Shown here: in pieces, positions 1 through 24,111 of the stretch | Layout: every line of letters begins with the position of its first letter | Numbering within the stretch: the stretch's first letter is position 1 | Source of the DNA: Acidobacteriota bacterium | GTDB lineage: Archaea; Nanobdellota; Nanobdellia; Woesearchaeales; DATGWN01 | Reading direction: 5' to 3' | DNA: 31,370 nt | NCBI GenBank assembly: GCA_035299465.1 | Contig: DATGWN010000075.1 | Span: forward strand, 1-31,370 | Program-made: the position numbers and the translations under genes | Notes under the pieces: generated by a model | Told to the model about the DNA's origin: nothing | Seen by the model: the letters and a program-made list of their open reading frames with translations, nothing else | Database searches by the model: none

Positions 1-2
1 AA

Positions 3-566
3 GAAATTAAGAAATACGATGGCAAAAAAGATATTGACATATTATTCGTTGGCAGACTTCATTTTCAAAAAAACGTCTTCCTGCTTCTTAATTCGATAGT
101 TGCCTTGCGAGAGAAACAACCTGACATTACCTGTACTATAATCGGGGACGGACCAGAATTGAAAAAGATTGAGAAGTTTATTCAGCAACATTCGCTATCA
201 AAAAATATAACGCTTAAGAAAAATACGAAGGATCACGACGAGCTATACCGCTATTACCAGCGGGCCAAGATTTTTGCATTCCCTTCACTTCTTGAAGGTT
301 TTGCCATCGTATCTTTGGAAGCAATGGCCTGCGGACTTCCTATTGTGACTATAGACGCACCTCAAAATCACGCAAAAGAGACAATAGGCAGCGGAGCTCT
401 ATACGCGAGTAACACGATCTCTGATTTTAGCCAGAAAATACAAATTCTTCTAAATGACAAAAAAATGTATCAAAGAATGAAGAATGAAAATTTGAAACGT
501 GCACAATCGTATTCTTGGACTAAAGCAACGAGACTATTGGAACGTTTATACTCGTCGCGGATTTAG
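3..566 (+). CDS. Glycosyltransferase family 1 (GT4-type), C-terminal portion; 5' end lies outside the window
   Basis: The frame is open from base 3 and the listed ORF starts at 105. It has the GT-B C-terminal hallmarks 'FVGRLHFQKN' and 'EGFAIVSLEAMACGLPIVTIDAP' (E-x7-E motif). Confidence 0.75.
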   Translation, partial: EIKKYDGKKDIDILFVGRLHFQKNVFLLLNSIVALREKQPDITCTIIGDGPELKKIEKFIQQHSLSKNITLKKNTKDHDELYRYYQRAKIFAFPSLLEGFAIVSLEAMACGLPIVTIDAPQNHAKETIGSGALYASNTISDFSQKIQILLNDKKMYQRMKNENLKRAQSYSWTKATRLLERLYSSRI

Positions 567-2006
567 ATAATATGCAGTGCTGTTCTCTAGCGAGCCATTA
601 CAGTTAAGTTCGGACAAAGCATCATCGCACAAATTCACCACTTCGCCATACTGTGCACAGGAGACGAGAGCTTTTTTGCAAGTTCCATTAACAATATAGA
701 TTGCCGTATTGAAGCAAACATTAGAAACACCGCCTTCACGCTTTAGTGTTCTTTCACAGAAAATTTCGTGAGTGGGATTATACATTTCTGGAAACACACC
801 TAACATTATCCTTGCCAAGGTGGTGTGAGACAAATAAGTTGAGTGACGAACATTCAAGTCAGAGATTCCAACAATGAATGCCTGAGATGCTATTATCACT
901 ATAAGAACGTAAGGAATGAATTTGATAGGCCGTAAGTATGAAATTTGTCTCACAATTATAAAAAAGAAAAACGGCATCAAAAGAACGGTATAACGACTTG
1001 GCCCAGCACTACCATGATTCCAATTTAGTTGCAATGCACAAAGTATTGCTATACAAAATACAACCACGATCAACGTATAATCCATAAGCCACTTGCGTTC
1101 TGCAATATAACTGTACCCAACAACAATGGGTACCAAGAGCATGCTAATTGGAATAAACGAGATCATACCTATATTCGCATCAAGGAACAATTCAATTACT
1201 TTGAGAAAGGACCAATATGCAATTGATATGTGGCCATCAATCACATTTATCTGCCCGAAATTCCAAAGATAAAAGAATGAAGGAATGAGTGCAAAAGCAA
1301 GAAAGAACACCTGATATAACTTCAGTCGCCAGTTTTGTCGATACATTGCGTTAATGCACACAAATAAAACATAAACCAATACTGCCTGATGTTGAAATGA
1401 GGCAAATATCGCGAATATAAGCGCTAGTGTTTGCCAGTTTTTGTGCAAGCAAACCAACGACATCACTAAAAAGGACGCGATGAATATTTCGACGTGGCTC
1501 CAGCGCAAATACAATAAAATAGGCGAAGTAAGTAGCAACAAACTATATGTAATTTTTTGACCAAAAGAAAATGTAGATAGAAAATGTATGAAAAATAATG
1601 CGGTTATAAGCAAAAGAGCGTTTGTTATTTGTAAAGCCTTGTATGGGTCAAAATGAGTGAGAATTAATAGTTTCATAACTCGAGCACTAATTAAAGAGTA
1701 CGCCCAAAAATGTGAACTATACAATTTTCCGTCACTTGTAGAAACGTAACCCGTGTAATTTGACAACGTACGCTGACCAAACGGATTAACTCCCTCCTTA
1801 TAGTATTCGGACAAATCTATTTCTTGCAAATCAGGCGAATCGTGATTTACAAATGACAAGGCCGTCAAATAATATTCATTACCATCACCTTGACGATAAG
1901 GAGAGAGGATCAGCATCGCACTCAGTAAAGCAACGCTTAACACAACAAACACAGTAATATTCAATCGATTTTCATTTTTTTGAAAAAAAGATTTGTGCAT
2001 ACTCAC
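546..2006 (-). CDS. Polytopic integral membrane protein, possible GT-C-type (PMT/ArnT-like) glycosyltransferase
   Basis: 486 aa with at least 10 hydrophobic helices. The first extracytoplasmic loop carries an acidic 'GDGNEYY' patch, and the C-terminal region is Cys-rich and soluble. The start overlaps the GT2 stop (ATGA at 2003-2006). Confidence 0.55.
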   Translation of the reverse strand: MSMHKSFFQKNENRLNITVFVVLSVALLSAMLILSPYRQGDGNEYYLTALSFVNHDSPDLQEIDLSEYYKEGVNPFGQRTLSNYTGYVSTSDGKLYSSHFWAYSLISARVMKLLILTHFDPYKALQITNALLLITALFFIHFLSTFSFGQKITYSLLLLTSPILLYLRWSHVEIFIASFLVMSLVCLHKNWQTLALIFAIFASFQHQAVLVYVLFVCINAMYRQNWRLKLYQVFFLAFALIPSFFYLWNFGQINVIDGHISIAYWSFLKVIELFLDANIGMISFIPISMLLVPIVVGYSYIAERKWLMDYTLIVVVFCIAILCALQLNWNHGSAGPSRYTVLLMPFFFFIIVRQISYLRPIKFIPYVLIVIIASQAFIVGISDLNVRHSTYLSHTTLARIMLGVFPEMYNPTHEIFCERTLKREGGVSNVCFNTAIYIVNGTCKKALVSCAQYGEVVNLCDDALSELNCNGSLENSTAYYLNPRRV

Positions 2007-3103
2007 TTTGTCTCAACCAGCAGAAAACTCACTAAGAACGCGCTCACAAACGCCTGAAAGGAGATCGTCGCGCCAGTCAACAAAAAGATGAGCAAGTTCG
2101 TATTCAACACCACCTGGTTAAACCACCAATCGTAAACGATCCAGCCCAGTGACGCGCTAAATCCAAGCAAAACCAAAACTGCAAACGACATAGCAATCTC
2201 AAACGGAATTTTAGCCATCGCCGTCAACAATTTCTCTTCAGCACCCAATCCACGTTGCTTCAAGACGATTTTCGCAATAAAACTCACTTGCAAAACGCTA
2301 AACCCAGTATAACACAAGAAGCTGGCAACTAATGCCGCAGAACGATAGAACGTGATAGATAGAAATTCTAATTGCCCGCCGATTGAGAACAGCAAAAGCG
2401 CTCCGCCCGTTAAGAAACTGATCATACCTATCAAGAAGAATAGGTTCAGAGGAATGTACGCAATCAAAAATCGAAGATGGCGCCAGCCATCGGCCCATGT
2501 CGATAATTTGGACTTACCGACCCGTACATGATATCGAATCGGCACTTCAACTATTTTAAAACGGTTCAGCAACGATTTAACAAGCATCTCTGACGCAAAC
2601 TCCATCCCTGTTGTTTTGCAAGAGAGAGCCTCAAAGTCTTTGCGATGTATCACTCGAAAGCCGGAATTATTATCGGTGATTCGCTGATGAAAAAGAATCG
2701 ACAAAAATCCTGAGAGAAGCGGAGTCCCGACGTATCGATGAAAAAACGGCATCGCGCCATGATCAACAACTGACCGTTTACCTATCACAAGCGTTCCTGC
2801 GCGCGATTTCTTGATAAGCGCAAGTGAATCACGAAAATCGTACGAACTATCGCAATCGGCGATCACAAATACAGAACCTGATGCGGCTGCAATGCCTTGC
2901 ATAATTGCCGCACCATAACCGATTTTATTATGTTTTACGACAGTCGCGCCATGCTGTTTTGCAATACGACCAGACGAATCAGAAGACGAATCAGACACAA
3001 TGATTTCGTACGAATGTCCCTTCATCGTATGGTGGATGGCGTCTACGCATCGTGCAACGGACTTCTCTTCATTACGACAAGGTAAAATGAAACTATACAT
3101 CAT
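2003..3103 (-). CDS. GT2 glycosyltransferase, dolichyl/polyprenyl-phosphate sugar synthase-like, with C-terminal 4-TM (GtrA-like) region
   Basis: The N-terminus 'ILPCRNEEKSV...IIVSDSSSD...' and 'VIADCDSSYD' (DXD) are typical GT2-A fold motifs. The C-terminal 120 aa are hydrophobic. Confidence 0.8.
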   Translation of the reverse strand: MMYSFILPCRNEEKSVARCVDAIHHTMKGHSYEIIVSDSSSDSSGRIAKQHGATVVKHNKIGYGAAIMQGIAAASGSVFVIADCDSSYDFRDSLALIKKSRAGTLVIGKRSVVDHGAMPFFHRYVGTPLLSGFLSILFHQRITDNNSGFRVIHRKDFEALSCKTTGMEFASEMLVKSLLNRFKIVEVPIRYHVRVGKSKLSTWADGWRHLRFLIAYIPLNLFFLIGMISFLTGGALLLFSIGGQLEFLSITFYRSAALVASFLCYTGFSVLQVSFIAKIVLKQRGLGAEEKLLTAMAKIPFEIAMSFAVLVLLGFSASLGWIVYDWWFNQVVLNTNLLIFLLTGATISFQAFVSAFLVSFLLVETK

Positions 3104-3135: not shown

Positions 3136-4524
3136 TTAGCTGAGAGCCGTGTCCTTCACTTTATATATAAATAAACCGTCCGTAGACAGCTCGGCCAAAA
3201 ACGAACATGTTTCAGGTTTTCTGTTTACAACATACTCAGCGCCCAATGAGCGTATAATTTCTTCTTTTTTTGCACATGTATCTGCATTGAAATACGATAG
3301 AACTGCATCTCTATTGCCTTCCTCCCATACACGCAAATACAGAGGCCTCTGCCCTGCACCTAAATACATGACATTATTCAACAATTCGTATGATAAAACT
3401 GGCGCTTGAGGTTGTGCACGAAGTACCGAAAGGGCATCAAATTCATTTTGCTTGACCATTTGACTCACGGTCTTAAATTCAATGAATTGATTATCGTAAT
3501 AACAGAATCCGACTATGAATAAAACACAGAGAACTACCACAAAAAAACTCGCACGAAGTCTAATTTTAGAGAGAAGTGTGTTTAGTTTTACCCCAGCGAA
3601 AATAATACCGATTGATCCCAACAATATGGTTGCAACCATAAGAAGGTAATAGTTTCGTTCAGCCGGCACTAATATGCTGAACTTGAAGAATATATACAAT
3701 AAAGCATTACAAGAAGTTATCAATGCAAGCCAAACTAAAACGATGAATGATTTAGCATGTGCGACCTTATTAAATTTTATTACATAAATAGCTAATATCG
3801 AAAAAATAAGTAGTGGAATACCACACAGGAAAAAAATATTGAACATTGAAATACTGTTTATGTCTGTATCTCCAAAGAATAGTAAGGATTGAATTGTGTA
3901 TCCAAACTTAAAATGTGCTACATATAATAAGGCTGCCCCGAAAAGAATACCCACAGCCAAAATGCGCTTGGACCTGTATACAATTAGACCTAAAATACCG
4001 ACAACAATCGCTGTGGGTGGATGAACAAAGCACGTAGCCACTAAAACTAACACATACTTCCATGTCACGGTCCTTGCCCGTAATGTAACTAGCGCAAGTA
4101 TGAGCAATGAAACGCCCAAAGACATTGGGACACCGTACAGAATCCCTAGAAGCTTAGCATTCGATGGCAGAGCGCCATACAAGCATAGGGCTACGATACT
4201 TATCCGCTTGTCGTCAAAGAGTTTCCACAAACCAATTCCTGCTAACACAATACAGGTCAACGTAACGATAAAATATCCCGACAGTGGAACCAATAACAGC
4301 CAGAATGCGACAAATATGATGAAACCCGCTTCCATATGAAAAAGTGCGGACCAATCGCCATCGAGGAACTGCTGAGCCAACGTAGCATGGCGCCATTCAT
4401 CGTTATGCCAAGGCAAAAAAAGAGTCGCTCGCTGTACGTAAAACGACACCAGAAGAATCAAAATAACGCATAAGTATAATCCAAACAATAATTTTTTTTC
4501 TTTATACTTATTTCGTAAAGACAT
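3136..4524 (-). CDS. Polytopic integral membrane protein with C-terminal soluble domain; second possible GT-C-type glycosyltransferase
   Basis: 462 aa with many TM helices. The first loop has an 'HNDEWRH' acidic motif. The C-terminal domain of about 110 aa is soluble. Confidence 0.55.
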   Translation of the reverse strand: MSLRNKYKEKKLLFGLYLCVILILLVSFYVQRATLFLPWHNDEWRHATLAQQFLDGDWSALFHMEAGFIIFVAFWLLLVPLSGYFIVTLTCIVLAGIGLWKLFDDKRISIVALCLYGALPSNAKLLGILYGVPMSLGVSLLILALVTLRARTVTWKYVLVLVATCFVHPPTAIVVGILGLIVYRSKRILAVGILFGAALLYVAHFKFGYTIQSLLFFGDTDINSISMFNIFFLCGIPLLIFSILAIYVIKFNKVAHAKSFIVLVWLALITSCNALLYIFFKFSILVPAERNYYLLMVATILLGSIGIIFAGVKLNTLLSKIRLRASFFVVVLCVLFIVGFCYYDNQFIEFKTVSQMVKQNEFDALSVLRAQPQAPVLSYELLNNVMYLGAGQRPLYLRVWEEGNRDAVLSYFNADTCAKKEEIIRSLGAEYVVNRKPETCSFLAELSTDGLFIYKVKDTALS

Positions 4525-4548
4525 TGCTTAAAGACGGAACAAAGGATT

Positions 4549-4555
4549 AAAAAAA
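4549..4555 (-). terminator. Oligo-T tract (T7 on the transcribed strand) 6 nt after the stop of the three-gene secreted-protein unit
   Basis: The plus strand reads 'ttaaaaaaag' immediately below the stop at 4562, which fits the archaeal oligo-T terminator pattern. Confidence 0.35.
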
Positions 4556-4561
4556 GTATCG

Positions 4562-5296
4562 CTAGCAGTAAGGACATAAATCGCCTGCGTTTGGTGCAGG
4601 ATCTGGGCAACATGCATATGGACAAATTACTTCACATTGAGCGCAATAAACACTCCATCCGCCTTCATCGAAAGGGCTATTATCGTTGTTATCACAAGTA
4701 CCGTCACAATTTTCATTTCCTCGGCAATTTCCACCACAAGCATCACAATTACATGGCGCATCAATAGGACCCGAAGGTGCAACCGAGCAATGATCCCAGG
4801 GATCGTGTTTGCCTGGTCCTTCTTCAATGATACCAGGAGCGTCATAGTGAGGCTCACCTGGCGAACAGCGCCCGTTACATGAAGATCCTAAACCTGGTAA
4901 GCTACCTGCAGCTGAAGCTGCATTACATGTACCATCGCAAGAAATTGTACCCCACTGTTCATCGTGTGCATGGCCATCAATACATGTATATTCGTTACGA
5001 CATTGGTTCACACCAGCATATCGGAAGCAAACAGCAGTTGAATAATTTGAGAAGGAATTAAATTCCCCGCGAGTAGCAGTACTTACAAAAATGCTTGTTG
5101 AACCGCTGTTATTAAAATAAAATTCACCAGTCGAAATTTCAGAAGCCCCATTCCAATATTCTGTCGAATAAGGAGTTGTGACTACAACATTCGTACCAGG
5201 TGGAACAATAATTCCACTTGAATTGTCATCAGCCTGTACAAGCATAATAAGTGAAAAAGAAAGCAAAATCCAGAGTATAAATTTGAGCTTCATCAT
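4562..5296 (-). CDS. Secreted cysteine-rich protein (signal peptide + beta-rich N-domain + C-terminal domain with about 30 Cys)
   Basis: The N-terminus 'MMKLKFILWILLSFSLIMLVQA' looks like a signal peptide. The C-terminal half is dense in C-x2-4-C spacing and ends '...CPDPAPNAGDLCPYC'. It starts 12 nt downstream of the 1095-aa gene. Confidence 0.7.
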   Translation of the reverse strand: MMKLKFILWILLSFSLIMLVQADDNSSGIIVPPGTNVVVTTPYSTEYWNGASEISTGEFYFNNSGSTSIFVSTATRGEFNSFSNYSTAVCFRYAGVNQCRNEYTCIDGHAHDEQWGTISCDGTCNAASAAGSLPGLGSSCNGRCSPGEPHYDAPGIIEEGPGKHDPWDHCSVAPSGPIDAPCNCDACGGNCRGNENCDGTCDNNDNSPFDEGGWSVYCAQCEVICPYACCPDPAPNAGDLCPYC

Positions 5297-5308
5297 AAAT
5301 TGTCCTTT

Positions 5309-8300
5309 CTAATCACTAAGTGCTGCAATTTGCGCTTTCAACTCATCGATTTGTTGCTGTTGAGCGTCAATCATGCGTTGTTGTTCTTGTACTGCTGCGA
5401 CAAGAGGAGCAACCATGTTGCCGTATTGGACTGACTTGAGTCCTGAAGCATCAGTATTTACAACTTGTGGAAGTACTTTCTCGACGTCCTGAGCGATGAA
5501 ACCGATTTGCGTGTTCATGTCAGCGGAATCTTTCCATTCAAACGTAACTGGCTTGAGTGCAAGTACCTTGGAAAGCATTGATTCGTCGTTGAGCTGTCGT
5601 ACGTTCTTCTTCAAACTTGCATCTGAAGTATACCAGTAAGCTGTTGCACCGACTGCGCCGTTGACTCGTAATTTGTATGTTGAAGGAGCGACACCAATAC
5701 CGACGTTTGTAGCGTCATCTTGGATGATTGAGTTTGTTAATGTCGTGCCTGCAGACCATTTCGGAATGTATGCAGCAGTACCGCTACCGCCGATACCACC
5801 AGCTGCTGCTGCCCAGTAACCTTCGTTTGTCCCGTCAGAAGTCCAAACTTGTCCGTTTGTACCTGCTGATGTGATGAAATATGCTCCATTCTGAACTTTT
5901 GCAGCTGTAAGTGTACCGTCTGCCAAGTCATCAAGATCCGCGTCGTATGCTTGGACGTTCGATCCGATTGCAAGACCCAAATTTGTTCGCGCAGTTGCAG
6001 CGTCGTTTGCGCCTGTACCACCGCGAGCGACTTCAATTGCACCTAGTGTAAAGAATGCAGTTGCTGAATCACCTGATAATGCGTTACCAGCTTCGCCGTC
6101 ACCAGCCGCATAGTTTCCAGTTGTATCAGTACCCAATGCAACACTATCTGCCGCAATTGTAGCGCCAACAACACCTGGACCAGTAGCAGTAACGTCACCA
6201 GTCAATTGACTGATACCGTTTCCGCCGCCGTCAGTACCACAAGTGAATGTGTTCGTACCAGTATCATAAAGAAGTTTGCTTGTTCCTGCAACATCACAAT
6301 CAGGGATAGTTTGTGCTTGCCAGCCGCTGCCGCCTGCACCAACCATGACTGCGTCTTCTGTTGCAGAAGTCAATCCAGTACCACCGCGAGTATATTCGAT
6401 TGCACCTGAACTGAAGAATGCCGTTGCTGAGTCACCAGTAAGTGCTGCACCAGCTTCTGCGTCACCAGCCGCGTAGTTACCCGTTGTTTCTGTACTGAGC
6501 GTAATAGCGCCATCAGACAAGGAAATCAAGTTGAAAGTTGGACTTGCCGCAGTGTGTATATCTTGAGGCAATGATAAAGTTGGAGCACCAGAGAGACCGT
6601 CACCATTAGAAACGGAAACTTGGTTTGCCGTACCTGTGATTGTTCTTGTCGTGAATGTATCCGCACCAGTTCGAACGACAATACCTGTCGAAGCGAGTTG
6701 GTGGATTGCTAGAGCCTGACCAGTAAGACCGATTGTTCCAGTCGTAGTGATTGGACCGCCTGTGACACCGTTGTTTGTTGCAATGTTAGTAACCGAACCA
6801 GCGATTGCTGAAATTGGAATACATTGTACACCGCTCGTCGTTGTATTTTCAACAACTGTGCCTGCCGCACATGTGCCAGGCACTGATTTTGCGTTTAATT
6901 GAGTTTGAATCGCTGACGTGACACCGTTGACATATCCAAGTTCTGTTGCAGTAGTAGTTGCAACTGCGACCTTACCTGAACCATCAGAAACGAGTGCGCG
7001 AGATGCAGTCAAATCTGAACTAGTGATAGATGTTGCACCACCAGTGATAGTTGCTTGCTTGCCGTTAAGTTGAGTTTGAATAGCTGATGTGACACCCGAT
7101 ACATAACCAAGTTCAGCAGCTGTTGTCGCTGAAACTGCGACTTTACCTGAACCATCTGATGCAAGTGCGCGGGATGCAGTCAAGTCCGAACCAGTGATAG
7201 ATGTTGCACCACCAGTGATAGTTGCTTGCTTGCCGTTAAGTTGAGTTTGGATCGCTGATGTGACACCTGAAACATAGCCGAGTTCTGTCGCTGTTGTTGC
7301 GGAAACGGATACAAGTCCTGAACCATCAGACGCAAGTGCGCGCGAAGTAGTCAAAGCAGGAAGTCGTGCAAATGGAACTGTACCAGATTGCATAGTGCCA
7401 GAAAGCCATAAGTCTGTCCATCGTGCACCCGTTGAACCAAGATTGAATGTCGCCGAAATGTTAGGCAAGAAGTCGCCGTTCACCGCAGTAGCTGCAGCAA
7501 GGTAGACATCGCCAGATTGTACGATGAGATCGCCGCCGAGGACGAGATTACCAGTAATTTGCGTTGCACCAGCAACGTTGAGCTTGAATGCACCTGGCGA
7601 GCTTGTACCGATACCGATGTTTCCACCAGTCTGATACATTTGCGAAGATGCAATCGTTGAACCGCCTGTGAAATATGATATATTGCCTGCGTCACCAGTA
7701 CCGTCGATACCACCTGCGCCTGCAATTGATGAACAAGTGTAAGAACTGTTAGTGATTGCTGTGAGAACTTGGCCACCGCCACATGTTCCGACTGCGCTCT
7801 TAGTCATCGCTAAATCATACGCCAGCTTAGCTGCGTTTGGTGTAGCGGATGTGTTTGTTGACGAAGATTGAACACCATCAGTAAGCATGACGACACCGAT
7901 CTGCGCCGTTGTACCAGGGCGAATCTGCTGATTTGATGCACCAGTTATACGACCTTGAGCGTCGATTGCGATTTGAGGACTTGAAATTGTGTCACCATAT
8001 GTTGCTGGAGTGACTGCTGTGTTCGCAAGGTTAAGTGTAATACCACCGGAAAGCGAACCACCGCCAGAAAGACCAGTACCTGCAGTAACTGATGGATTAC
8101 CTGAAATTCTTGCCCATGGAACTGAACCATTTTGAAGATCTCCAGACCAACCAACATCACCGTAGACGTGCAATCTATATAATGGGACGACTGGACCTAC
8201 ACCGATTTTGTCGCCAAAATCAATGATGATAGAATCGCCGATTTCACTTTCGTTGTTGAACTTAGGAACACGATTAGAATTACCTTTTGATGTAACGTTA

Positions 8301-8596
8301 CCTACGCCGCCGACACCGCCAGTTGGCCATGAACCACGGCAATCTGCACCGATGCATAGACCACTAGAACCACGAGCATAACCTGTGACATCAAGCGCTT
8401 GCGTTGGAGTGCCCGTTCCGATACCGACTTTACCCGAAGTACCGTTTACAACGAGATAATCGATAGATGGTGATGATGAATTCTCAATGACAAAATCTCG
8501 AGCATATGCTACTGGAGAAAATGCGAAGAGTAGTAATACCAAGATACTGATTAATTTAGTTGCTGATGTCATTCCCCCTATTCCCCCAGTTCTCAT
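5309..8596 (-). CDS. Giant secreted Gly/Thr/Ser-rich tail-fibre-like surface protein with C-terminal intramolecular-chaperone (peptidase S74-like) autoproteolytic domain
   Basis: Signal peptide. Repeated 'G-x-VGIGT-x-x-P-x-x-KL-x-V-x-G' motifs and three 57-aa tandem repeats. The C-terminal 105 aa, '[11 protein letters not shown]...[10 protein letters not shown]...[15 protein letters not shown]...' followed by a coiled coil, match the phage tail-spike chaperone domain. Confidence 0.8.
6880..7392 (-). repeat. Three tandem 171-bp (57-aa) repeats inside the 1095-aa gene
   Basis: 'ttgagtttgaat...' recurs at 6899, 7070 and 7241. The protein unit is '[12 protein letters not shown](K/L)V(A/S)VSATTA(T/A)[31 protein letters not shown](G/S)SDL'. 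Confidence 0.85.
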
Positions 8597-8616
8597 GTTT
8601 GTACTCTGTACTCTTT

Positions 8617-11600
8617 TTAAATCTTAATGTAAACGTCACCGTTCGAATTCAAACCGACTGAACCGCTGTTCGTCGTTGCTTGGAACGTACCCACAACATC
8701 AAGTTTGTTTGATGCCGTTGCTGTATTGATACCGATGTTTCCGCTGTTTTGGAAAATCTGTGATGATGCTACCGTTGAACCTGCTGTGAAGTATGTGATA
8801 TTTCCTGCGTTACCAGAACCGTCGATACCGCCTGCACCAGCGATTGATGTACATGTGTAAGTGCTGTTCGTGATTTGCTGCAAGACTTGTCCACCCGCAC
8901 ATGAGCCAACTGCTGCTTTCGTAGCTGCCAAGTCATACGCTAGTTTGACTGCGTTCGGAGTCGCAGATGTGTTTGTCGACGAAGATTGTACGCCGTCCGT
9001 TAACATCAAAACACCGATCTGTGATGTCGAACCAGATCTGAATTGGTTTGTGCCTGCCGCAGTCAATCGACCTTGAGCGTCTACAGTGAATGACGGAATT
9101 GCCGTATCAGAACCATATGATCCTGCGCCGACAGCCGTGTTTGCTAAATTGAGTGTGACTGAACCCGAAAGTGCTCCGCCACCAGACATACCTGTGCCTG
9201 CAAGAACTGATGGGTGACCAGACAATCGTGCCCATGGGACTTCACCTGATTGCATCGTGCCTGAAAGCCACAAATCATTCCATCGAGCTCCAGTGGAACC
9301 GAGATTGAAAGTCGCTGACACGTTTGGTAAGAAGTCGCCATTTATTGCAGTCGCTGCCGCAAGATAAACGTCGCCCGTCTGAAGTATGAGATCGCCACCT
9401 GTGATAACGAGATTTCCAGTCATCAAAGTATTTCCTGTGACTGATAATTTGTATGAACCAGGATTGTTATTTCCAATACCAACATTACCTTCGATGACTG
9501 CACCATCGGATGGCGGAGTTGTTGCAAGATAACTATTTCCTACACGAAGATCGTTCAAAGTTCCTCGGTAACCAACCATTTCTACATTGTTGCCAAGTCG
9601 CTTGAATCCGCCGTCAACTGCTGTTCCACTGACTTTCACAATATATGAACCATCAGAAACACCGGAGTGATTTACGCGAAGTGGACTGTCTGCGAGAGGA
9701 GTTCCAAGACCTGTGAAACCTTCGACAATAAGACCATTTGAAGCATTTCCAAGCGATGCGTAACTTGAACCAATCGAGACGTTACCTGAAACGGATAATT
9801 TGGAACCTGGTGATGAAGTGCTCAAACCGATTCGACCGCTCGTCTGGTATAATTGTGCGGATGCCAAGTTTGACGTACCAGTCCAGTATGAGATATTGCC
9901 TGCGTTACCAGTACCAATTGTTCCGCCGATCGCATCGATTGGAAGACATTGAACACCAGTCGTTGTTGTGTTTTGGACAAAGTATCCAGCTGCACAACTT
10001 CCTGCTGTCGCTTTGATGAGTGCAAGATCGTATGCAGTTTTGACTGCTCTGGATGACGCAACTGAATATGTTGAGTTATATGACACACTATCATTCATGA
10101 TAGCGATACCGAATTGTGAAGTATTTGAGTAGGGGACATCTGACAATCGAGCCCATGGGACTGTACCAGCTTGAAGAGTTCCCGTGAAACCGACATCGCC
10201 TTGTACATCCAACTTATACGAAGGAGTTGAAGTTCCAACGCCGACATAACCACTTGTTTTCAAAGACATGACTGGTCCGCCGTATCCTGTATTCGTAATC
10301 GTGAATGTATCTGGGTTGTTTCCGGACATACCTGCACCGATTCCCCATAGATAATTATTACTTGATGACGTCAAAGCGCCACCGATGCTGCCAGTAACGC
10401 CTGAACCGAATGCAATTGATGATTCGCCCACTGCCGTGTTGACGACTTGAATTTGTCCGTTGCTGCCAGAAGTTGTTTCGACAACAAGTTTACCGCCGTA
10501 CAAGTGAGCAAGAGCGCTTGGTGACGTTGTTCCGACACCCAATCTGCCCGCGTCAGTTAATACTGCTTTAGCAGTGCCTGACGTGACGAAAGTCATATTG
10601 TTTGAAGACGGAAGATAGATACCTGCGCCCGAACCTGAGAATGTGCTCGTCGGGGAAAATTGTAATTCGCGTGAAGTGCCGAGTGCGATCTGGCCGTTTA
10701 CCGTGAGTTCTTCGTTTGGCGAAGACGTACCGATACCGACAAGACCTGTATTTGTGATGACCATTCGGTTTGACGTAGAATCATAATCATAGAACTGAAG
10801 CAAGCCACTTCCTGTGTCCGCATATGTTACTTCCCATCGCTGGCTGCCTGAACTGTTGACGAACTTGAGTTGGCTTGAACCAGATGAAGTCTGTTGTAAT
10901 CGCAAATCACCGACGACATGTAATCGACCAGCCGGAGCTGTTACACCAATACCAACGTCACCGCTATTTTCAAACGTAACTCTGTCGTTGCCAGTTGAAT
11001 CGTAGAATCGTAAGTCGTCGCTCGATGCAGGAACGTATGCTAACCATTTGTTTGTGCCTGCTTTCTTGAAGTAGAGTGTTGCTGCCGTAGCCGCGCTCGA
11101 ATCGATTGCTGCAGATGCCGCAGCAGTGCCTGCGCCGACGTGTAAATTACTTGTTGGAGCTGCGGTGCCGATACCGACATTGCCTGAAGTATCTATAGTA
11201 AGAGCAGTATTAGTGCCTAGATCTGCCATTGAGCGGCCGATTTTGAATTTGTCTAAATCGCTATTGTCCGATCCAATCATCCAAGCGACACCGCCTGACG
11301 AGAAACCAAGAGTTGCATCGCCTGCGCCAGCTTGTTCTACTCTGATTATATCAGAAGTAGTTGCATCGTTCTTGTATGCGCGAATGATTTCGCTGCCTGA
11401 AGCAGCAGTCGTACCTACAGCAAGATTTGTTGAAACATACGCATCGCCAGAAACGGAAAGTCGCGTAGTCGGACTTACGCCAATACCGACGTTACCACCG
11501 TCGACGATTCTGATTGCGCTCGTAGAAGTACCGTCTGAAATGTCGACACCACCAAGCCAACCTGCCGATGCACTTGTACCGTAACCGATTCGAAGGACAT

Positions 11601-12021
11601 TCGATGTCGTGTTATCGATCAAAGCGCCTTTTCCATTAAATGAGAGATTATTACCTGCAGAAATCTGGATAGCACCTGCCACATCCAACTTTTGTGCTGG
11701 AGTTGCAGTACCTATACCGACATTAGATGTCAAGTAATATACATAATTAGTAGTAGTATTTCTTCGCCATGGACCGATATATGATTGGTTGATCGCACGG
11801 TTTAGCGTCGTTTCACCAATTCCCGGAATGTCGGGGACTTTGACGACGATCTGGTTTGCATTGTGACCGTTTAAGATGCTGCTTTGGAATGTATGGTTAC
11901 CGACAGATAATAATGTGTCAGAAATGAGCTCGTCTGCAACAGAAAACGGCAACACCAACAGTGTAATGATTGTAAACAGAGCGTAACAGATAATACTTTT
12001 TGAACGTTTCCCTACAGGCAT
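8617..12021 (-). CDS. Giant secreted Gly/Thr/Ser-rich tail-fibre-like surface protein, paralogue of 5309..8596 without the chaperone domain
   Basis: Signal peptide '[20 protein letters not shown]'. At least 10 copies of the GxVGIGTxxPxxKLxVxG motif. The C-terminal 300 aa are about 70-80% identical to an internal segment of the neighbouring gene, in permuted order. Confidence 0.8.
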
Positions 12022-12138
12022 CCCATAAACCCCTTTTTATACAGTCCCGAAAAACACGATTTAAATACTTTGTGGCGGGAATCAAGAACAATGTCTAATT
12101 CCTAGGTCGGAGAAAGCAAATCGCCGTTTTTTCCTGCA

Positions 12139-14712
12139 ATGTTGAATTTTAAGAAGAAAGTTTATAAAAAAACTCCCGTCCCACCAACTTGCATGTCACA
12201 AGAAAAAACAACCGAAGCTGGACGAGAGCAATCACCCGCGCAAACTAATGCGCAATCTGACAAAACGCAAGCAAAGTACTCTGCAGCAACGGACGAACCG
12301 AATCTTCTGACATACTGGAAAACACATAAGACATTCAAGTTCAACCAATCGTCTAAGAAACCAGTCTTCTCAATCGACACGCCGCCACCGACAATGTCCG
12401 GTAAAATGCACATCGGTCACGCGTGCTCATACTCACAACAAGACTTCATCGCTCGCTACAAACGTATGAACGGTTTTGAAGTCCTCTATCCATTTGGTAC
12501 TGACGACAACGGTCTTCCGACTGAAAAACTCGTCCAGAAAGTCAAAAACGTTCTCGCTACAAAAATGGAACGAGAAGCCTTTGTCAAACTCGTACTCGAC
12601 TATCTAAAAGAAGAAAGACCAAAATTCATCAGCGATTGGCAACGCATCGGTATCTCCTGTGATTTTGATATCATGTACTCGACAATTGATCCATTGTGTC
12701 GACGCATCAGCCAATTATCCTTCCTCAATCTCGCAAAGAAAGGCCTCGTCTACCAAAAAGAAGCACCTGTTATCTGGGACACTGTGTTTCAGACAGCAAT
12801 CGCGCAAGCCGAACTTGTCGACGTAGAAAAGCAGTCTTTCTTCAACAACATCGTATTCAAATTGGAATCCGGCGAAAACCTCATCATCGCAACAACACGA
12901 CCCGAATTACTTGGAGGCTGCGTTGCAATTTTCGCACACCCTGAAGATAAAAGATACAATCACCTTTTCGGCAAATTCGCAATCTCGCCATTATATAATG
13001 CAAAAGTTCCGATTATGCCTGACGAAAAAGTCGCTATCGACAAAGGAACAGGCATCGTCATGTGTTGCACATTTGGCGACCAGACAGACATCGAGTGGTA
13101 CAAAAAATATAATCTACCGCTCAAGATGGTCATCGACCGAGACGGTAAGATGAATGAAGCGTCGGGCAAATACGCTCGACTGAAAATTGAAGATGCAAGA
13201 AAAGCAATCATCGACGACCTCAAAGCAGCAAACCTTCTCATCGGTCAAAAACCAATCACGCATACAGTCAACGTTGGTGAACGAAGCGGCGTAGCAGTTG
13301 AAATCCTCAATTCAAAACAATGGTATGTAAAATACCTTGACAAAAAAGAAGATTTCCTCAAATACTCAGAACAATTGGAATGGCACCCGCAACATATGAA
13401 GCACCGCCTTGACAATTGGATCAAAGGTCTCAACTGGGACTGGTCGATTTCACGACAGAGAAAATACGGCGTACCTATTCCAGCTTGGCACGGCAGCGAC
13501 GGAAAAATATATTTTGCAGACGAATCTCAATTACCTGTTGACCCTCTTGTCGACAAACCAAAGAACTTGCCTCACGGCGTCACAGTCACACCGGAGACTG
13601 ACGTATTCGATACATGGTTTACATCAGCATCCACACCATTTATTGTGAAGGAGTTGCTCAAAGGAACACCGATTCACGATAAACTCATACCCTTCTCGAT
13701 CAGACCGCAAGGGCAAGACATCATCAACTTCTGGCTCTTCTATACTTTGATCAAGACCGAACTCACCACACATCAACTTCCTTGGAAAAAGGCACTTATC
13801 TCTGGCTACGTCTTGGACCCGCACGGCGAGAAAATGTCAAAATCAAAAGGAAATACTATCTCTCCGCAAGAAATCCTCAAAAAGCATCCTGCAGACGCCA
13901 TGCGTTTCTGGGCAGCTACTGGAAAACTGGGCGAAGATATGCCGTATCAAGAAAAGGATCTCGTCACTGGCGCAAAACTCATCAATAAACTCTGGAACGC
14001 AGGCAAATTCGTCTGGATGTTCACACAAAGTTGGGACGGGAAAAAACCAAATCACATTTTCACAAACGATGAATGGTTGCTCTCTGAATTAAACGCAACA
14101 GTCCAAAAGACTACTGACGCCTTCGAAGAATTCGAATACGCACGCGCAAAAGCCGCATCAGAAGACTTCTTCTGGACTATATTCTGCGACCAATATTTAG
14201 AATCTATCAAGAAAATCCACTACGCGCCAGATCAATTCCCGAAAGGTTCATTGCAAAGTGCGCAGTACACGGTGCATACCGCATTCGTATCTGCACTCAA
14301 ACTGTTCGCACCAATCTTGCCATTCATAACAGAAGCTGTGTACACGAACTTCTTCGACACCAAAGAAGGCGCAAGTATCCACACGTCGCAATGGCCTACG
14401 CAACATGAAATCAAAGACAAGCACGCCCATGAAAATGGAGCGATCCTGCAAAACTTCCTTTCAACCGCTCGACGCTATAAAGCTGACAGCAACGTTGCTT
14501 TGAACACGCCGATGATAATCAACGGCATCGCATGCGACGCTCAGACAGCAAAACTTCTGCTTGAAAACAAGGAAATCATTATCGGCACATTGTGTGTAGA
14601 GAGAGTCGACGAAGACATGTTCAAAGCGTCAGCAAGTCCGTCCTTCACTGTCGCCACAAAAGTTCCGATTACCGTTTCTTGCGAACTAAAACCAGTCGAA
14701 AAGAAGCTCTAA
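12139..14712 (+). CDS. valS: Class Ia aminoacyl-tRNA synthetase, most likely valyl-tRNA synthetase
   Basis: 'PPPTMSGKMHIGHA' (HIGH), 'ATTRPELLGG...HPEDKRY' (ValRS-like CP1 editing motif), 'WDWSISRQRKYGVPIPAW', 'KMSKSKGN'. At 857 aa it is too short for IleRS. LeuRS or IleRS are not fully excluded. The true start may be 12193. Confidence 0.6.
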   Translation: MLNFKKKVYKKTPVPPTCMSQEKTTEAGREQSPAQTNAQSDKTQAKYSAATDEPNLLTYWKTHKTFKFNQSSKKPVFSIDTPPPTMSGKMHIGHACSYSQQDFIARYKRMNGFEVLYPFGTDDNGLPTEKLVQKVKNVLATKMEREAFVKLVLDYLKEERPKFISDWQRIGISCDFDIMYSTIDPLCRRISQLSFLNLAKKGLVYQKEAPVIWDTVFQTAIAQAELVDVEKQSFFNNIVFKLESGENLIIATTRPELLGGCVAIFAHPEDKRYNHLFGKFAISPLYNAKVPIMPDEKVAIDKGTGIVMCCTFGDQTDIEWYKKYNLPLKMVIDRDGKMNEASGKYARLKIEDARKAIIDDLKAANLLIGQKPITHTVNVGERSGVAVEILNSKQWYVKYLDKKEDFLKYSEQLEWHPQHMKHRLDNWIKGLNWDWSISRQRKYGVPIPAWHGSDGKIYFADESQLPVDPLVDKPKNLPHGVTVTPETDVFDTWFTSASTPFIVKELLKGTPIHDKLIPFSIRPQGQDIINFWLFYTLIKTELTTHQLPWKKALISGYVLDPHGEKMSKSKGNTISPQEILKKHPADAMRFWAATGKLGEDMPYQEKDLVTGAKLINKLWNAGKFVWMFTQSWDGKKPNHIFTNDEWLLSELNATVQKTTDAFEEFEYARAKAASEDFFWTIFCDQYLESIKKIHYAPDQFPKGSLQSAQYTVHTAFVSALKLFAPILPFITEAVYTNFFDTKEGASIHTSQWPTQHEIKDKHAHENGAILQNFLSTARRYKADSNVALNTPMIINGIACDAQTAKLLLENKEIIIGTLCVERVDEDMFKASASPSFTVATKVPITVSCELKPVEKKL

Positions 14713-23425: not shown

Positions 23426-24111
23426 AACGGTCTCATCGCATGAATATTTATGTACGTATTTTTTCCAGCGACTTCCTTTGGTATCGTTCGCACATGTGAA
23501 ATAATGAACCCAGCGTCGCAAACAATTTGTCGCAATCCCGTCGGCGTATCTCGGAATCGATACCGAGGTAATGCATACTTCTTGTCGGCGGGCAGCCAAC
23601 CCTCGTCTCGCCCCATCCCTTCAATAAAACCGAAAAATAATGCTCCCGTCGGCTTAGTGATGCGATACAATTCTGAAAGCACTACCCGTATCTGTGCAAG
23701 TGGCGTCGTCGTCAAAGAGCAATTAGTCCACACTCCGTCAAAATAGCCGTCAGAAAAAACGCGTAAATCTTTTTCATAATTCATTTGTCGAGTTTCAATA
23801 CCCTTATCTGCCGCACGCATCAGCGCATATGCAGACAAATCAACACCCAGTACTGACAAACCACGCAAAGAAAGTTGCTGTGCATCGCGACCTGGACCGC
23901 AACCAAGATCCAACACTCGGCCGTCGACACTCATTCGAAAAAAGTCATAATCTTTCTCATACAGATGTGCACAATATTTTGTTCTACCTTCGTACTGAGC
24001 AGAATATGCATTGTATAGTTCTTGTTTGATAAGAATTCTATCTGATTCGCAAACATCCGCAGTAAGCGGAGCACAACCAGTCGCAAACTCACGAATTTTG
24101 TCGATATGCAT
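23422..24111 (-). CDS. Class I SAM-dependent methyltransferase
   Basis: Motif I 'VLDLGCGPGRDAQQL', motif II 'GVDLS' and a post-II acidic residue, in a Rossmann-like layout. Confidence 0.8.
   Translation of the reverse strand: MHIDKIREFATGCAPLTADVCESDRILIKQELYNAYSAQYEGRTKYCAHLYEKDYDFFRMSVDGRVLDLGCGPGRDAQQLSLRGLSVLGVDLSAYALMRAADKGIETRQMNYEKDLRVFSDGYFDGVWTNCSLTTTPLAQIRVVLSELYRITKPTGALFFGFIEGMGRDEGWLPADKKYALPRYRFRDTPTGLRQIVCDAGFIISHVRTIPKEVAGKNTYINIHAMRPL

Follow-up and report, generated by a model that had tools for sequence, protein, structure and literature searches.

The window, the whole 31,370-nt stretch of DNA that was analysed, displays three consecutive minus-strand open reading frames at positions 8617-12021 (1134 aa, F1134), 5309-8596 (1095 aa, F1095), and 4562-5296 (244 aa, C244), in that order, separated by gaps of 20 and then 12 nt. 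A run of seven T residues (T7; 4549..4555, minus strand) lies past the C244 stop, and the co-directional arrangement, the short gaps and the trailing oligo-T described in the first-pass annotation are thereby placed at exact coordinates. The T7 run may represent an archaeal oligo-T terminator and/or, because it is located at -31 to -25 of the ATG of the following gene, M462, part of a TATA-like box. At the opposite end, the 117-nt divergent intergenic region common to F1134 and ValRS holds a putative TATA/BRE-like element, GTATTTAAATCG (12057..12068, minus strand), read from the sequence 36-47 nt upstream of the F1134 ATG. From position 12021 down to 546, six genes run co-directionally with gaps of at most 37 nt.

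In all three proteins a hydrophobic stretch of 15-20 aa lies between a positively charged n-region and a small-x-small site, with AYA/RD, SVA/DE, and VQA/DD as cleavage-site candidates, in agreement with the signal peptides originally proposed for all three; these predictions, made by hydropathy and the -3/-1 rule, are heuristic. Hydropathy discloses no TM-like segments beyond the signal region in F1134, F1095, or C244, and no C-terminal TM segment, sorting signal or other anchor is detectable in the three proteins, so the fibres could be released instead of displayed.

F1134 (8617..12021, minus strand, as are all its features), named 'phage tail protein' by NCBI, is a predicted secreted fibre protein of the non-S74 type with matches to PHROG tail-fibre families and to Pfam Phage_fiber_2 (8914-9030). 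It comprises (i) a predicted signal peptide (aa 1-29, ...PFSVA/DE; 11935..12021; hydropathy and -3/-1 rule); (ii) a shaft (9742..11727) of repeat units of 66-138 aa, each opening with a capping-loop-like 'GxVGIGTxxPxxxLxVxG' motif, according to a motif map that counts nine such motifs in the whole protein; (iii) modules B and A (8743..9489), containing a Cys-x15-Cys hairpin and paralogous to F1095 aa 145-412 by BLASTP, DNA repeats and Pfam; and (iv) a C-terminal terminating module, '...GNIGINT..KLDVVG...NGDVYIKI' up to the stop (8620..8742), recognised by family comparison, the ending of which recurs in the archaeal-family non-S74 chains P0163, L065, L064, and L052. Peptidase_S74 is absent from F1134, and the capping motif is the sole strongly conserved feature of the 37-sequence family alignment. 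Structure prediction, suggested earlier as a check for fibre folds, is in keeping with such a fold: the AF2 model is all-beta, with a pLDDT of 70-86 around the motifs and a low-confidence 52 overall, and its best 14 Foldseek matches in the PDB are all mosaic adhesive trimer (MAT) fibres of Bdellovibrio, alongside 219 viral fibre matches. TM-scores to the MAT chains are low and the model is of low confidence, which leaves sequence similarity as the main basis of the fold match.

F1095 (5309..8596, minus strand throughout), the 'tail fiber domain-containing protein' of NCBI, is the S74-type counterpart, assigned by its ORF, PHROG tail-fibre families and Pfam, which detects Peptidase_S74 (3.9e-16) and Phage_fiber_2 (7799-7912). 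The protein displays, from the N-terminus, a predicted signal peptide (aa 1-32, ...VAYA/RD; 8501..8596; hydropathy and -3/-1 rule), a mature head of ~25 residues, 'RDFVIENSS...' (8426..8500), modules A and B (7361..8164), paralogous to the F1134 C-terminal region by BLASTP, DNA repeats and Pfam, three tandem 171-nt (57-aa) repeats (repeat D1, 6863..7375), a duplicated segment of about 80 aa (repeat D6, 5954..6562), and a C-terminal intramolecular chaperone/S74 autoprotease domain (5312..5626; PF13884, aa 991-1046). The SDxxxK motif of this last domain is intact, with a predicted S991/K996 dyad in 'TSDASLKK' that remains in register when F1095 is aligned to 8JOV, 6F45, 7Y5S, 4UW8, and MYRF 7DC3, and the predicted released fragment comprises 105 aa, including a coiled-coil-like C-terminal tail. 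Phage_fiber_2 in both proteins, Peptidase_S74 in F1095 and the multiple PHROG families bear out the tail-fibre-like character first attributed to the pair, as their lengths and a Gly+Thr+Ser content of 35-37% do for their description as Gly/Thr/Ser-rich proteins of over 1000 aa. Their designation as paralogues holds in part: BLASTP aligns F1095 145-366 with F1134 914-1132 at 64% identity and F1095 325-412 with F1134 845-933 at 78% identity, and the DNA repeats of the modules are 74-79% identical, with further, weaker matches elsewhere. The claim that both are rich in N-x-S/T sequons is not sustained; the two proteins hold 10 and 19 sequons, equal to the expectation from composition (11.2±2.8 and 17.6±3.4), so the apparent enrichment simply follows from an abundance of N, S, and T.

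The third protein, C244 (4562..5296, minus strand), comprises a predicted signal peptide (aa 1-22), a Cys-poor N-terminal half (23-89) and a C-terminal half (90-244) with 21 Cys, 8.6% of the protein, as befits the Cys-rich partner initially described. Profile searches, Pfam, PHROG and NCBIfam among them, returned no family match for C244, and no homologue was found in 5.8e9 indexed proteins or by exhaustive phmmer of 1.84e9 representatives.

The F1095 head is common to at least 28 other giant metagenomic proteins, and the head family is present at 26 metagenomic loci. Alignment A3, which comprises F1095 and 25 sequences (23 of the 26 metagenomic loci, P0224, and the second gene of L050), discloses two positionally conserved N-x-S/T sequons in the head (F1095 N39 and N51), the first in 26/26 and the second in 25/26 sequences, preceded by an h-region that varies in sequence and is fixed in position, with Ala at -1 in 24/26. 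Glycosylation of these proteins thus finds some support in the two conserved head sequons, not in sequon density. Head-family loci adjoin archaeal markers, including aRF1, aIF2-gamma, or the archaeal ThrRS editing domain, and the head is absent from the 2.9 million viral contigs of IMG/VR. Family genes often stand in tandem within one cassette and are translationally coupled through an ATGA stop/start overlap, and other members bear Laminin_G_3 lectin and YadA_stalk adhesin domains, the latter in L067.

Downstream of C244 by 37 nt, and co-directional with it, M462 (3136..4524, minus strand) is a polytopic membrane protein with about 10 TM-like segments by hydropathy and a soluble C-terminal tail; it has no Pfam, NCBIfam, or PDB match, and its single-sequence AF2 model, at a pLDDT of 48, is unusable. 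It is followed by a GT2 glycosyltransferase with C-terminal TM segments (2003..3103, minus strand; Pfam Glycos_transf_2, 1.6e-17) and by a second polytopic protein, M486 (546..2006, minus strand; ORF and hydropathy), which displays about 9 TM-like segments, a C-terminal tail holding Cys and sequons, and a gene overlapping GT2 by 4 nt; M486 has no family match in profile searches and is not a detectable paralogue of M462. The C-terminal half of a GT1/GT4-type glycosyltransferase (1..566, plus strand; Pfam Glycos_transf_1, 1.9e-30), open in frame from base 3 and cut by the contig end, is convergent with the cluster. Both glycosyltransferases of the first-pass annotation are thus recovered by Pfam, with GT1 on the opposite strand and truncated. 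GT2 is AglJ/dolichyl-phosphate hexose transferase-like, consistent with the proposed Dol-P-sugar synthase, with NCBIfam scores for AglJ (1.5e-32) and DPhHxTase (2.5e-29) that lie below the equivalog cut-offs; the two membrane proteins are polytopic as stated, and no family match backs the 'GT-C-like' label. No such glycosylation cluster adjoins head-family members at other loci and the cassette is unconserved beside ValRS, so the existence of a dedicated apparatus equipped with glycosylation genes of its own is not established.

The contig, filed by NCBI under an Acidobacteriota MAG, is archaeal DPANN, with Hef (874 bits) and archaeal FEN1 (394 bits) both above equivalog cut-offs and a ValRS whose best-scoring matches are mostly Woesearchaeota/Nanoarchaeota MAGs (57-68% identity), some carrying vague or placeholder taxonomic labels. 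By its gene content the organism is a DPANN archaeon of the Woesearchaeota, placed within Nanobdellati; it would be a tiny and probably host-dependent one, the episymbiotic lifestyle being assumed from lineage. The GC content is raised across 5-12 kb, owing to codon positions 1 and 2 (Gly/Ala/Thr content) and not to GC3, which amounts to 0.33 in F1095 and 0.27 in C244 compared with 0.40-0.49 in core genes; the codon usage of the fibre genes falls inside the spread of the other genes in the window. A synteny comparison, another of the checks suggested at the outset, placed the cassette next to ValRS in none of 45 related genomes, and a search for exact or strain-level relatives found none; the cassette is therefore accessory.

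The MAT superfamily, characterised in Bdellovibrio in 2024 (Caulton et al., PMC10769870), is defined by a signal peptide, S74 and non-S74 subfamilies, a capping-loop motif, surface display and glycan binding; the fibres studied by experiment bind surface glycans of other cells, predatory Bdellovibrio displays them for prey recognition, and the listed holders, bacteria only in the paper and its supplementary list, are enriched for predators and symbionts (PMC10769870). F1134 matches the PDB sequences of Bd2133 (phmmer, E=2.5e-10) and Bd3182 (7e-7), and the profile of the 37-member family matches Bd2133 (1e-31), Bd1334 (2.5e-15), Bd3182 (2.7e-14), and Bd2439 (7.6e-10). Shared features comprise (i) proteins of ~1,000 aa with an N-terminal signal peptide; (ii) a beta-helix repeat shaft with the capping-loop motif, 'VGIGTxxPxxxL' here, one residue longer than the V-G-G/N-pi-x-x-P-x-x-x-L of MAT; (iii) S74 (SDxxxK) and non-S74 members in one genome; (iv) mosaic distal modules; and (v) a life at the expense of other cells, assumed from lineage for the archaeon. 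The archaeal proteins differ in their host, in a ~25-aa two-sequon head after the signal peptide where Bdellovibrio has a ~130-aa domain that is not evident here, in a layout of tandem cassettes whose genes are often coupled in translation, in a C-terminal cap specific to the family, and in the Cys-rich orphan partner. Moreover, the archaeon is devoid of outer membrane and periplasm, so anchoring must differ from that of the Bdellovibrio fibres.

The best reading of this wholly in silico evidence, with a probability of about 0.6 for the explanation as a whole, is that F1134 and F1095 represent an archaeal variant of MAT-type surface adhesin fibres within the MAT/phage-tail-fibre superfamily, encoded with a lineage-specific Cys-rich secreted protein, C244, in an operon-like cassette of a Woesearchaeota (DPANN) chromosome; the surface-adhesin role is preferred because the shaft is homologous to experimentally characterised Bdellovibrio MAT fibres. 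All three proteins would be exported by Sec, with the signal peptide cut after Ala. F1095 would then trimerise outside the cell, guided by its C-terminal S74 intramolecular chaperone, which would self-cleave at or beside S991, with K996 as the base, to leave a mature trimeric fibre; domain and motif are present, and the activity is that expected from the family. F1134, of the non-S74 type, would form a long beta-helical shaft of capping-loop repeats closed by the family-specific C-terminal cap. The ~25-residue head of F1095 probably anchors the fibre at the cell envelope, whereas the mosaic distal modules, possibly with C244, would recognise a ligand carried by another cell or another surface, the most plausible bearer being the host of the episymbiont, by analogy with prey recognition in Bdellovibrio. 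Glycosylation of the fibre proteins outside the membrane may be the task of the GT2 and the two polytopic proteins, although this link is weak. The observation of the first-pass annotation is therefore confirmed and its interpretation, a surface attachment apparatus, partly supported, the dedicated glycosylation not being established; its alternative, that the homologues are ordinary S-layer proteins, can be set aside, as no match to an S-layer family was obtained. What had been called uncharacterised is so for the archaeal branch of the superfamily, which is undescribed, the Bdellovibrio branch being already known. The fibres are concrete candidates for partner-cell recognition by such archaea.

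A rather unlikely alternative keeps the MAT-like exported fibres and gives them a general envelope or matrix role, such as cell-cell aggregation, mineral or biofilm attachment, or S-layer spacing, instead of specific host recognition. The generic Laminin_G_3 and YadA_stalk modules of the family, the accessory cassette, unconserved among the 45 relatives, and the secreted S74 fibre proteins of many non-predatory bacteria, including Elusimicrobiota and Bacteroidetes, are compatible with it; however, the experimentally studied relatives bind other cells' surface glycans, the listed MAT holders are enriched for predators and symbionts (PMC10769870), and mosaic, fast-changing tips with an orphan partner are what diversifying pressure on receptor-binding proteins would typically produce. 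Release of the fibres to act at a distance, as a virus-soaking decoy or as a toxin/bacteriocin-like binding module with C244 as effector, appears very unlikely. It would account for the missing anchor and for C244, many toxins likewise being small secreted orphans rich in Cys, but no toxin, immunity, or enzymatic domain was matched in the three proteins, and the conservation of the head throughout a large family is better accounted for by a shared role in attachment or processing.

On sequence evidence the locus is cellular, not viral, and there is a slim chance at best that the genes derive from an integrated virus or a tailocin/eCIS, as remnants or cargo, and encode true virion tail fibres. 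The Phage_fiber_2 repeat, the 57-aa repeat and the 'GNVGIGT' shaft are shared with phage fibres, and the Ser-Lys pair is in register with Peptidase_S74-bearing fibres (K1F endosialidase, T5 pb1 4UW8, S16 gp37 6F45, cyanophage). The best single-module matches are phage proteins: the 57-aa repeat segment is 60-80% identical to phage fibre proteins, including 72% for Phage NCTB and the product P0012 of a phage contig, which adjoins genes for terminase, portal, and capsid; modules recur in 126 deposited phages, the homologue P0182, with a hydrophobic N-terminus, lies on a contig with a portal gene, and the GC3 of F1095 and C244 is somewhat below that of core genes. Nevertheless, phage matches reach at most about 35% of the protein length, with no phage record spanning ≥80%; phage homologues lie amid virion genes and are devoid of the signal peptides predicted for all three chromosomally encoded archaeal proteins, and among the best 120 F1095 matches only the window's own two proteins display a hydrophobic N-terminus. 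The 31 kb contain no capsid, portal, terminase, or contractile-system gene, no integrase and no tRNA, the flanks being housekeeping genes, and the head adjoins archaeal housekeeping genes at several loci and never occurs on IMG/VR contigs. A chimera of an archaeal contig with bacterial or phage DNA, produced in assembly, which the Acidobacteriota label and the raised GC might suggest, is scarcely credible: the GC rise stems from codon positions 1 and 2, F1095 carries the archaeal-family head and F1134 the archaeal-family cap, the ValRS side carries archaeal-type genes, and on the other side the co-directional run of genes is unbroken.

Beyond MAT and phage fibres, the SPEARE proteins of Nanohaloarchaeum antarcticus are reportedly giant DPANN surface proteins and, like the trimeric autotransporter adhesins (YadA), are very large and exported, with attachment to other cells proposed or shown; no homology to either was detected, the domain content differs (YadA_stalk in L067 excepted), and we know of no S74 or phage-fibre modules reported for them. 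The long tail fibres of T4, T2, and S16 comprise several gene products, with gp38, a small adhesin at the tip, encoded after gp37, and share with the archaeal cassette the order of consecutive fibre-segment genes and then a ~250-aa protein after the S74-bearing distal fibre. F1095 and S16 gp37 can be aligned over their chaperone domains and T4 gp34 is among the weaker Foldseek matches, whereas C244 has no sequence or family similarity to gp38, and phage fibres are assembled in the cytoplasm while the archaeal proteins are predicted to be exported; a T4-style end-to-end docking of F1134 and F1095 would be pure conjecture. The ICA domain of MYRF (7DC3), a weak match (E=0.17 with F1095, 3.6e-6 with the family profile) from a eukaryotic membrane-bound transcription factor unrelated beyond the S74 region, represents a cellular, non-viral S74 chaperone/autoprotease that likewise serves to make a trimer and then to cut it.

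The three secreted-protein genes lie consecutively on the minus strand and encode, in transcription order, F1134 (1134 aa, positions 8617-12021), F1095 (1095 aa, 5309-8596), and the small partner C244 (244 aa, 4562-5296), coordinates exactly as claimed in the first-pass annotation. They are spaced by 20 and then 12 nt, the two gap lengths already reported, and the oligo-T described after the last gene corresponds to seven T at 4549-4555, beyond the C244 stop codon. The signal peptides proposed for all three are borne out by a heuristic reading, each N-terminus comprising (i) a basic n-region, (ii) a hydrophobic segment 15-20 residues long, and (iii) a small-x-small site, with predicted cleavage (arrow) at SVA↓DE in F1134, AYA↓RD in F1095, and VQA↓DD in C244. 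Gly, Thr, and Ser together account for 35-37% of both large proteins, which confirms the richness noted earlier, and their paralogy holds in partial form: F1095 145-366 matches F1134 914-1132 at 64% identity and F1095 325-412 matches F1134 845-933 at 78%, with weaker repeat-level similarity elsewhere and DNA copies that are 74-79% identical. The partner C244 contains 21 Cys, matches no Pfam, PHROG, or NCBIfam profile, and retrieves only itself from 5.8 billion indexed proteins and from an exhaustive phmmer search of 1.84 billion representatives.

The six genes running from 12021 to 546 are all co-directional, with gaps of 20, 12, 37, 32, and -4 nt. The T7 run downstream of C244 occupies -31 to -25 of the start codon of M462, the next gene, and 'TTTTTTTAAT' covers -31 to -22 (window 4525-4561). 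In leaderless archaeal mRNAs a TATA box is expected at about that distance from the start codon; the run may be a terminator, a promoter element, or both, so that the operon may end at C244 or continue beyond it. The cysteines of both fibres are nearly all paired, 16-19 residues apart ('GxC..G.............C'; F1134 aa 676/692 and 1041/1057; F1095 aa 272/288, 576/592, and 767/786; window about 5.3-12 kb), and most of these pairs enclose an N-x-S/T sequon, a pattern that hints at hairpin modules closed by disulfides, such as typify extracellular proteins.

F1134 consists mostly of nine units, each opening with 'GxVGIGTxxPxxxLxVxG', the sole strongly conserved feature in an alignment of 37 homologues; it contains a single Phage_fiber_2 repeat and lacks an S74 domain. 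The AlphaFold2 model of residues 1-850, computed from this alignment, is all-β with a pLDDT of 52, reaching 70-86 in the motif-flanking units, the low value being as expected for a monomer model of what would be an obligate trimer. In a Foldseek comparison with the PDB, the top 14 matches of this model are all mosaic adhesive trimer (MAT) fibres of Bdellovibrio (Bd2133, Bd3182 at 35% identity, Bd1334, and Bd2439), with T4 gp34 next. Because the structure model is weak, the relationship was checked by sequence: phmmer with F1134 against the PDB sequences retrieves Bd2133 (2.5e-10) and Bd3182 (7e-7), in an alignment that includes a 22-letter stretch against 'MRIDTSGNLGLGTAAPTSALHV', and the family profile reaches Bd2133 (1e-31), Bd1334 (2.5e-15), Bd3182 (2.7e-14), and Bd2439 (7.6e-10). 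Phage fibre proteins, too, commonly contain a shaft of the F1134 type (219 BFVD matches).

The tail-fibre likeness proposed for F1095 stands, the protein matching a Phage_fiber_2 repeat (aa 229-266), Peptidase_S74, and a dozen PHROG tail-fibre families; it further comprises three tandem repeats of 57 aa, two copies of a repeat of ~80 aa, and two capping-loop motifs. The C-terminal Peptidase_S74 'chaperone of endosialidase' domain (PF13884) spans aa 991-1046 (E=3.9e-16, 59.5 bits against a cut-off of 22), with 'TSDASLKK' in register with the SDxxxK of 8JOV, S16 gp37 (6F45), 7Y5S, and T5 pb1 (4UW8), while MYRF (7DC3) displays a weaker alignment to this region. The predicted catalytic dyad is S991/K996, and the fragment predicted to be released from F1095 comprises 105 aa.

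The Bdellovibrio MAT proteins display signal peptides, comprise S74 and non-S74 subfamilies, and, located at the surface of the predator, bind glycans of its prey; other holders, for which only bacteria are named, are listed under 'predator-associated lifestyles' (PMC10769870). The window fibres form a close analogy: (i) a signal peptide is also read, heuristically, in F1134 and F1095; (ii) the capping-loop β-helix/prism shaft is also present, its motif one residue off the published consensus; and (iii) the MAT C-terminus, either S74 (SDxxxK) or non-S74, is paralleled by the S74 of F1095 ('SDASLK') and by the non-S74 end of F1134, a family-specific module hereafter called the cap. The difference lies at the N-terminus, where the MAT proteins carry a conserved β-rich domain of ~130 aa after the signal peptide, itself not in the PDB, whereas the archaeal family keeps ~25 residues, the so-called head, and then diverges; the F1134 N-terminus in turn differs from the head of the F1095-type members. 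As the three other MAT features are shared and the ~130-aa N-terminal domain is not shown, the window fibres are filed as an archaeal variant of the MAT/phage-fibre adhesin kind rather than as a new category, with the trimer and the surface display predicted. To our knowledge, the Bdellovibrio MAT fibres are the only experimentally studied cell-displayed phage-fibre adhesin system, and direct sequence homology to them stretches that system across the bacteria/archaea divide.

Homologues of the F1134 N-terminal region with signal peptides occur on cellular contigs: P0163 (locus L050) adjoins Elp3 and a ThrRS with an archaeal editing domain, and P0224 (locus L047) adjoins GatCAB and toxin-antitoxin genes. 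P0163 ends in '...NGDMIFRI', compared with '...NGDVYIKI' in F1134, and its gene shares 4 nt with a second one that also encodes a signal peptide and, after it, a mature N-terminus similar to that of F1095; the mature N-terminus of P0224, 'KDFIVENKT...IINGTTG', is likewise similar to 'RDFVIENSS...VVNGTSG' of F1095. A scan with the N-terminal alignment discloses 26 head-family loci in JGI metagenomes and zero in 2.9 million viral contigs. The proteins range from 832 to more than 2,700 aa and display a signal peptide that leads into 'A↓[KR]DF[IV]IxNx[ST]...QNYF[VI]VNGT[ST]G', conservation being limited to about 25 residues; in an alignment of 26 family members the h-region is fixed in position and variable in sequence, and Ala occupies -1 in 24. 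The head sequons N39-x-[ST] and N51-G-T are present in 26 and 25 of these 26 aligned members, respectively, counts to be read with care, since the motifs were part of the retrieval patterns; against this, a single pattern sufficed per locus, and some 16 sequences that the first pattern would have missed nevertheless bear its sequon. Neighbouring genes for aRF1 and a DPANN-like ValRS (L070) and for aIF2-γ (L062) show the hosts to be archaeal.

Tandem cassettes are found at L062, L064, L065 (three genes), and L050, where the upstream chain ends in the common cap '...GNVGIxTxxPxxxLxVVG...[DN]G[DN]VxIxI' and stops, and an ATGA stop/start overlap opens the next gene at four of the five junctions; the corresponding gap in the window is 20 nt. 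None of the six complete family members scanned contains S74, which makes F1095 a mosaic of an archaeal head and an S74-type phage-like fibre. Among members in archaeal context, a YadA_stalk motif (L067 5397-10103) and a Laminin_G_3 lectin domain (L064 1748-6454) were also observed, the former known from trimeric autotransporter adhesins, so that the mosaic draws on bacterial adhesin modules besides phage ones. At L047 (9619-15525), P0224 (1451 aa) and a downstream 434-aa protein finish in the same ~40-aa motif, 'SSK[AS]GY.M.C....C...G.AM.NQKQS.D.I.VMV[RK]', which is, as read from sequence, a shared C-terminal tip domain. Toxin-antitoxin-like small genes (RHH, PIN, DUF3368, DUF433) directly adjoin the fibre genes at L047, L061, and L066 and suggest that the latter lie in variable genomic islands.

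The genomic context of the window is archaeal. Two of its products exceed their profile cut-offs, a Hef helicase-nuclease at 874 bits (cut-off 610) and an archaeal FEN1 at 394 bits (cut-off 352); the window further encodes ValRS, CysRS, an SPFH protein, and methyltransferases, and contains no tRNA genes or Rfam RNAs. The best-scoring relatives of the ValRS adjoining the locus are mostly MAGs of Woesearchaeota and Nanoarchaeota (57-68% identity), including archaeon GW2011_AR15, and Woesearchaeota are placed within Nanobdellati, that is, DPANN. At NCBI the contig is assigned to a MAG named 'Acidobacteriota bacterium' (locus tag VK158_...); Hef, FEN1, and the ValRS relatives place it in Woesearchaeota, so that it was probably mis-binned. 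The synteny comparison called for earlier did not find the cassette kept next to ValRS: no homologues of the fibres, of the membrane proteins M462 and M486, or of the intervening GT2 occur within ±10 kb of this gene in 45 relatives. This absence, together with that of a Cys-rich partner and of a glycosyltransferase cluster at the other family loci, indicates that the cassette is accessory and variable. A look-up for exact copies of F1095 among assemblies gave no match.

Downstream of C244, the minus-strand GT2 gene (2003-3103) encodes a GT2 domain (PF00535) at 64 bits, above the cut-off, followed by C-terminal TM segments. Its description as Dol-P-sugar synthase-like holds at the family level, the best NCBIfam matches, AglJ (1.5e-32) and dolichyl-phosphate hexose transferase (2.5e-29), both lying far below the equivalog cut-offs. 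The flanking polytopic proteins M462 (3136-4524) and M486 (546-2006), both on the minus strand, display ~10 and ~9 TM-like segments by hydropathy and acidic motifs after TM1 ('HNDEW' at M462 aa 40-44, 'GDGNEYY' in M486) that are compatible with GT-C and not specific to it; neither has a Pfam match at E≤10, an NCBIfam match at E≤0.1, or a PDB sequence match, and the single-sequence AF2 model of M462 (pLDDT 48) is unusable. A paralogous relationship between M462 and M486 was rejected, as they share no mutual similarity. Extracytoplasmic glycosylation systems (ArnC/ArnT, GtrB/Gtr, AglD/AglS) usually pair a polyprenyl-phosphate sugar synthase with polytopic proteins encoded next to it, and by this analogy GT2, M462, and M486 are candidates for such a module. 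A GT1/GT4 glycosyltransferase gene (1-566, plus strand) is convergent with M486, the 3' ends overlapping by 21 nt; its reading frame runs open from base 3 onward, and it is the contig end, not a truncation, that cuts the gene. The glycosylation cluster does not extend to the family as a partner, being absent beside the other loci, and the sequon richness claimed for the large proteins dissolves on comparison with composition-matched shuffles (10 and 19 sequons against 11.2±2.8 and 17.6±3.4), so that sequon enrichment was dropped as evidence of glycosylation.

Several explanations of the fibres have to be weighed. The best-scoring homologues of F1095 cover 14-35% of its length, mainly through the 57-aa repeats at 60-80% identity, have no hydrophobic N-terminus, and often start with 'MANVKITDL...'; one of them, P0012, adjoins terminase, portal, and capsid genes, and among deposited phages 126 records match single modules and none covers at least 80% of the protein. 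Parts of F1095 are thus phage-like in that single modules are common with phage proteins, as a provirus or tailocin remnant would have it; such a remnant is nevertheless quite improbable, as the window ORFs scanned contain no capsid, portal, terminase, integrase, sheath, tube, baseplate, or contractile-tail families and the signal peptides set the window fibres apart from their phage homologues. On the same two grounds, a provirus, a tailocin, and an eCIS were rejected as identities of the locus. Misassembly is very improbable indeed: the raised G+C of the fibre genes arises at codon positions 1 and 2 (Gly/Ala/Thr content), their GC3 is slightly below that of the core genes, and their codon usage falls inside the spread of the other window genes. 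As the rise is compositional and the codon usage unremarkable, neither a recent foreign insert nor a chimeric join is indicated, and a recent foreign origin was rejected.

A general envelope or matrix role is unlikely though by no means negligible. Hydropathy discloses neither a second TM-like segment nor a C-terminal anchor in F1134, F1095, or C244, as would suit fibres released from the cell with C244 as effector; this option is improbable given the conserved head, through which the fibres would be held. Two further candidates were set aside, an S-layer protein (no Pfam or NCBIfam S-layer match, genes absent at the equivalent position in 45 relatives) and a DGR target (no reverse-transcriptase family among the ORFs scanned). 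As a separate observation, P0182 (1372 aa, L048 9790-13908) displays the signal-peptide-like N-terminus 'MKKLTIILLLLVVSMIMVSA↓EP'; on its contig a phage portal gene is accompanied by numerous small ORFs that lack annotation, which points either to a viral fibre whose N-terminus is hydrophobic or to a virus of an unusual host.

A more speculative and rather improbable reading, to which we assign a probability of about 12%, is that DPANN archaea possess their own MAT/phage-fibre branch in translationally coupled multi-gene cassettes, in which the cap ('...NGDVxIxI') of one chain would dock on the conserved N-glycosylated head ('DFxIxNxS...VNGTTG') of the next, yielding long composite fibres that resemble the T4 long tail fibre but are assembled outside the cell; orphan tips such as C244 would set the host cell to which the episymbiont can attach. 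Of the most likely mechanism, the elements supported directly by sequence comprise the gene order, N-termini of signal-peptide type, an S74 domain whose dyad is intact, the MAT shaft homology, and the archaeal family termini. By family knowledge (PMC10769870 and the S74 literature cited in it), the chains would be exported by Sec and cleaved after Ala; they would trimerise outside the cell, F1095 undergoing S74-assisted folding and then self-cleavage at or next to S991, and would be displayed on the envelope through the conserved, probably N-glycosylated head, and the mosaic distal modules would bind a ligand that another cell presents, C244 perhaps lying at the tip.

The means by which DPANN archaea find and hold their hosts are largely unknown, and we know of no cultured representative of Woesearchaeota; the fibres provide concrete, testable candidates for host recognition in these uncultured archaea. 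The signature, in which a signal peptide leads into 'A↓KDF[IV]IxNx[ST]...NGT[ST]G', picks giant archaeal surface proteins from metagenomes and makes the host-range determinants of uncultured episymbionts searchable, and the family would offer a clean case of phage receptor-binding hardware domesticated by cells of parasitic lifestyle. The first-pass annotation had largely taken the right direction, overreaching on the sequons, on GT-C, and in the word 'uncharacterised'. At NCBI, F1095 already bears the name 'tail fiber domain-containing protein' and F1134 that of 'phage tail protein', so that bare tail-fibre homology is not new. In the searchable literature, no earlier account that connects tail fibres, S74, or MAT with DPANN or Woesearchaeota was found, and to that extent the cross-domain MAT link, the archaeal N-head/C-cap family, the conserved sequons, and the coupled cassettes are new. 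The one mention met with concerns a Micrarchaeota co-culture, in which cryo-ET showed thin 'antennae' that end in a bulb and were described as 'reminiscent of bacteriophage tail fibers'; these are located on the host (AS-7) cells and not on the DPANN cell, and no gene is assigned to them (PMC11329633).

Three points concern the annotation of the window itself. The public record, as a side result, probably mislabels the contig as Acidobacteriota. The ValRS displays an N-terminal low-complexity extension of ~45 aa without match (window 12139-12275, plus strand), its relatives aligning from residue ~46, and either the true start lies downstream or the extension is a lineage-specific addition. Finally, two minus-strand ORFs, 22586-23599 (TTG start, no family match) and 23422-24111 (methyltransferase), overlap by 178 nt, and the start of the downstream ORF of this pair is probably mis-called.
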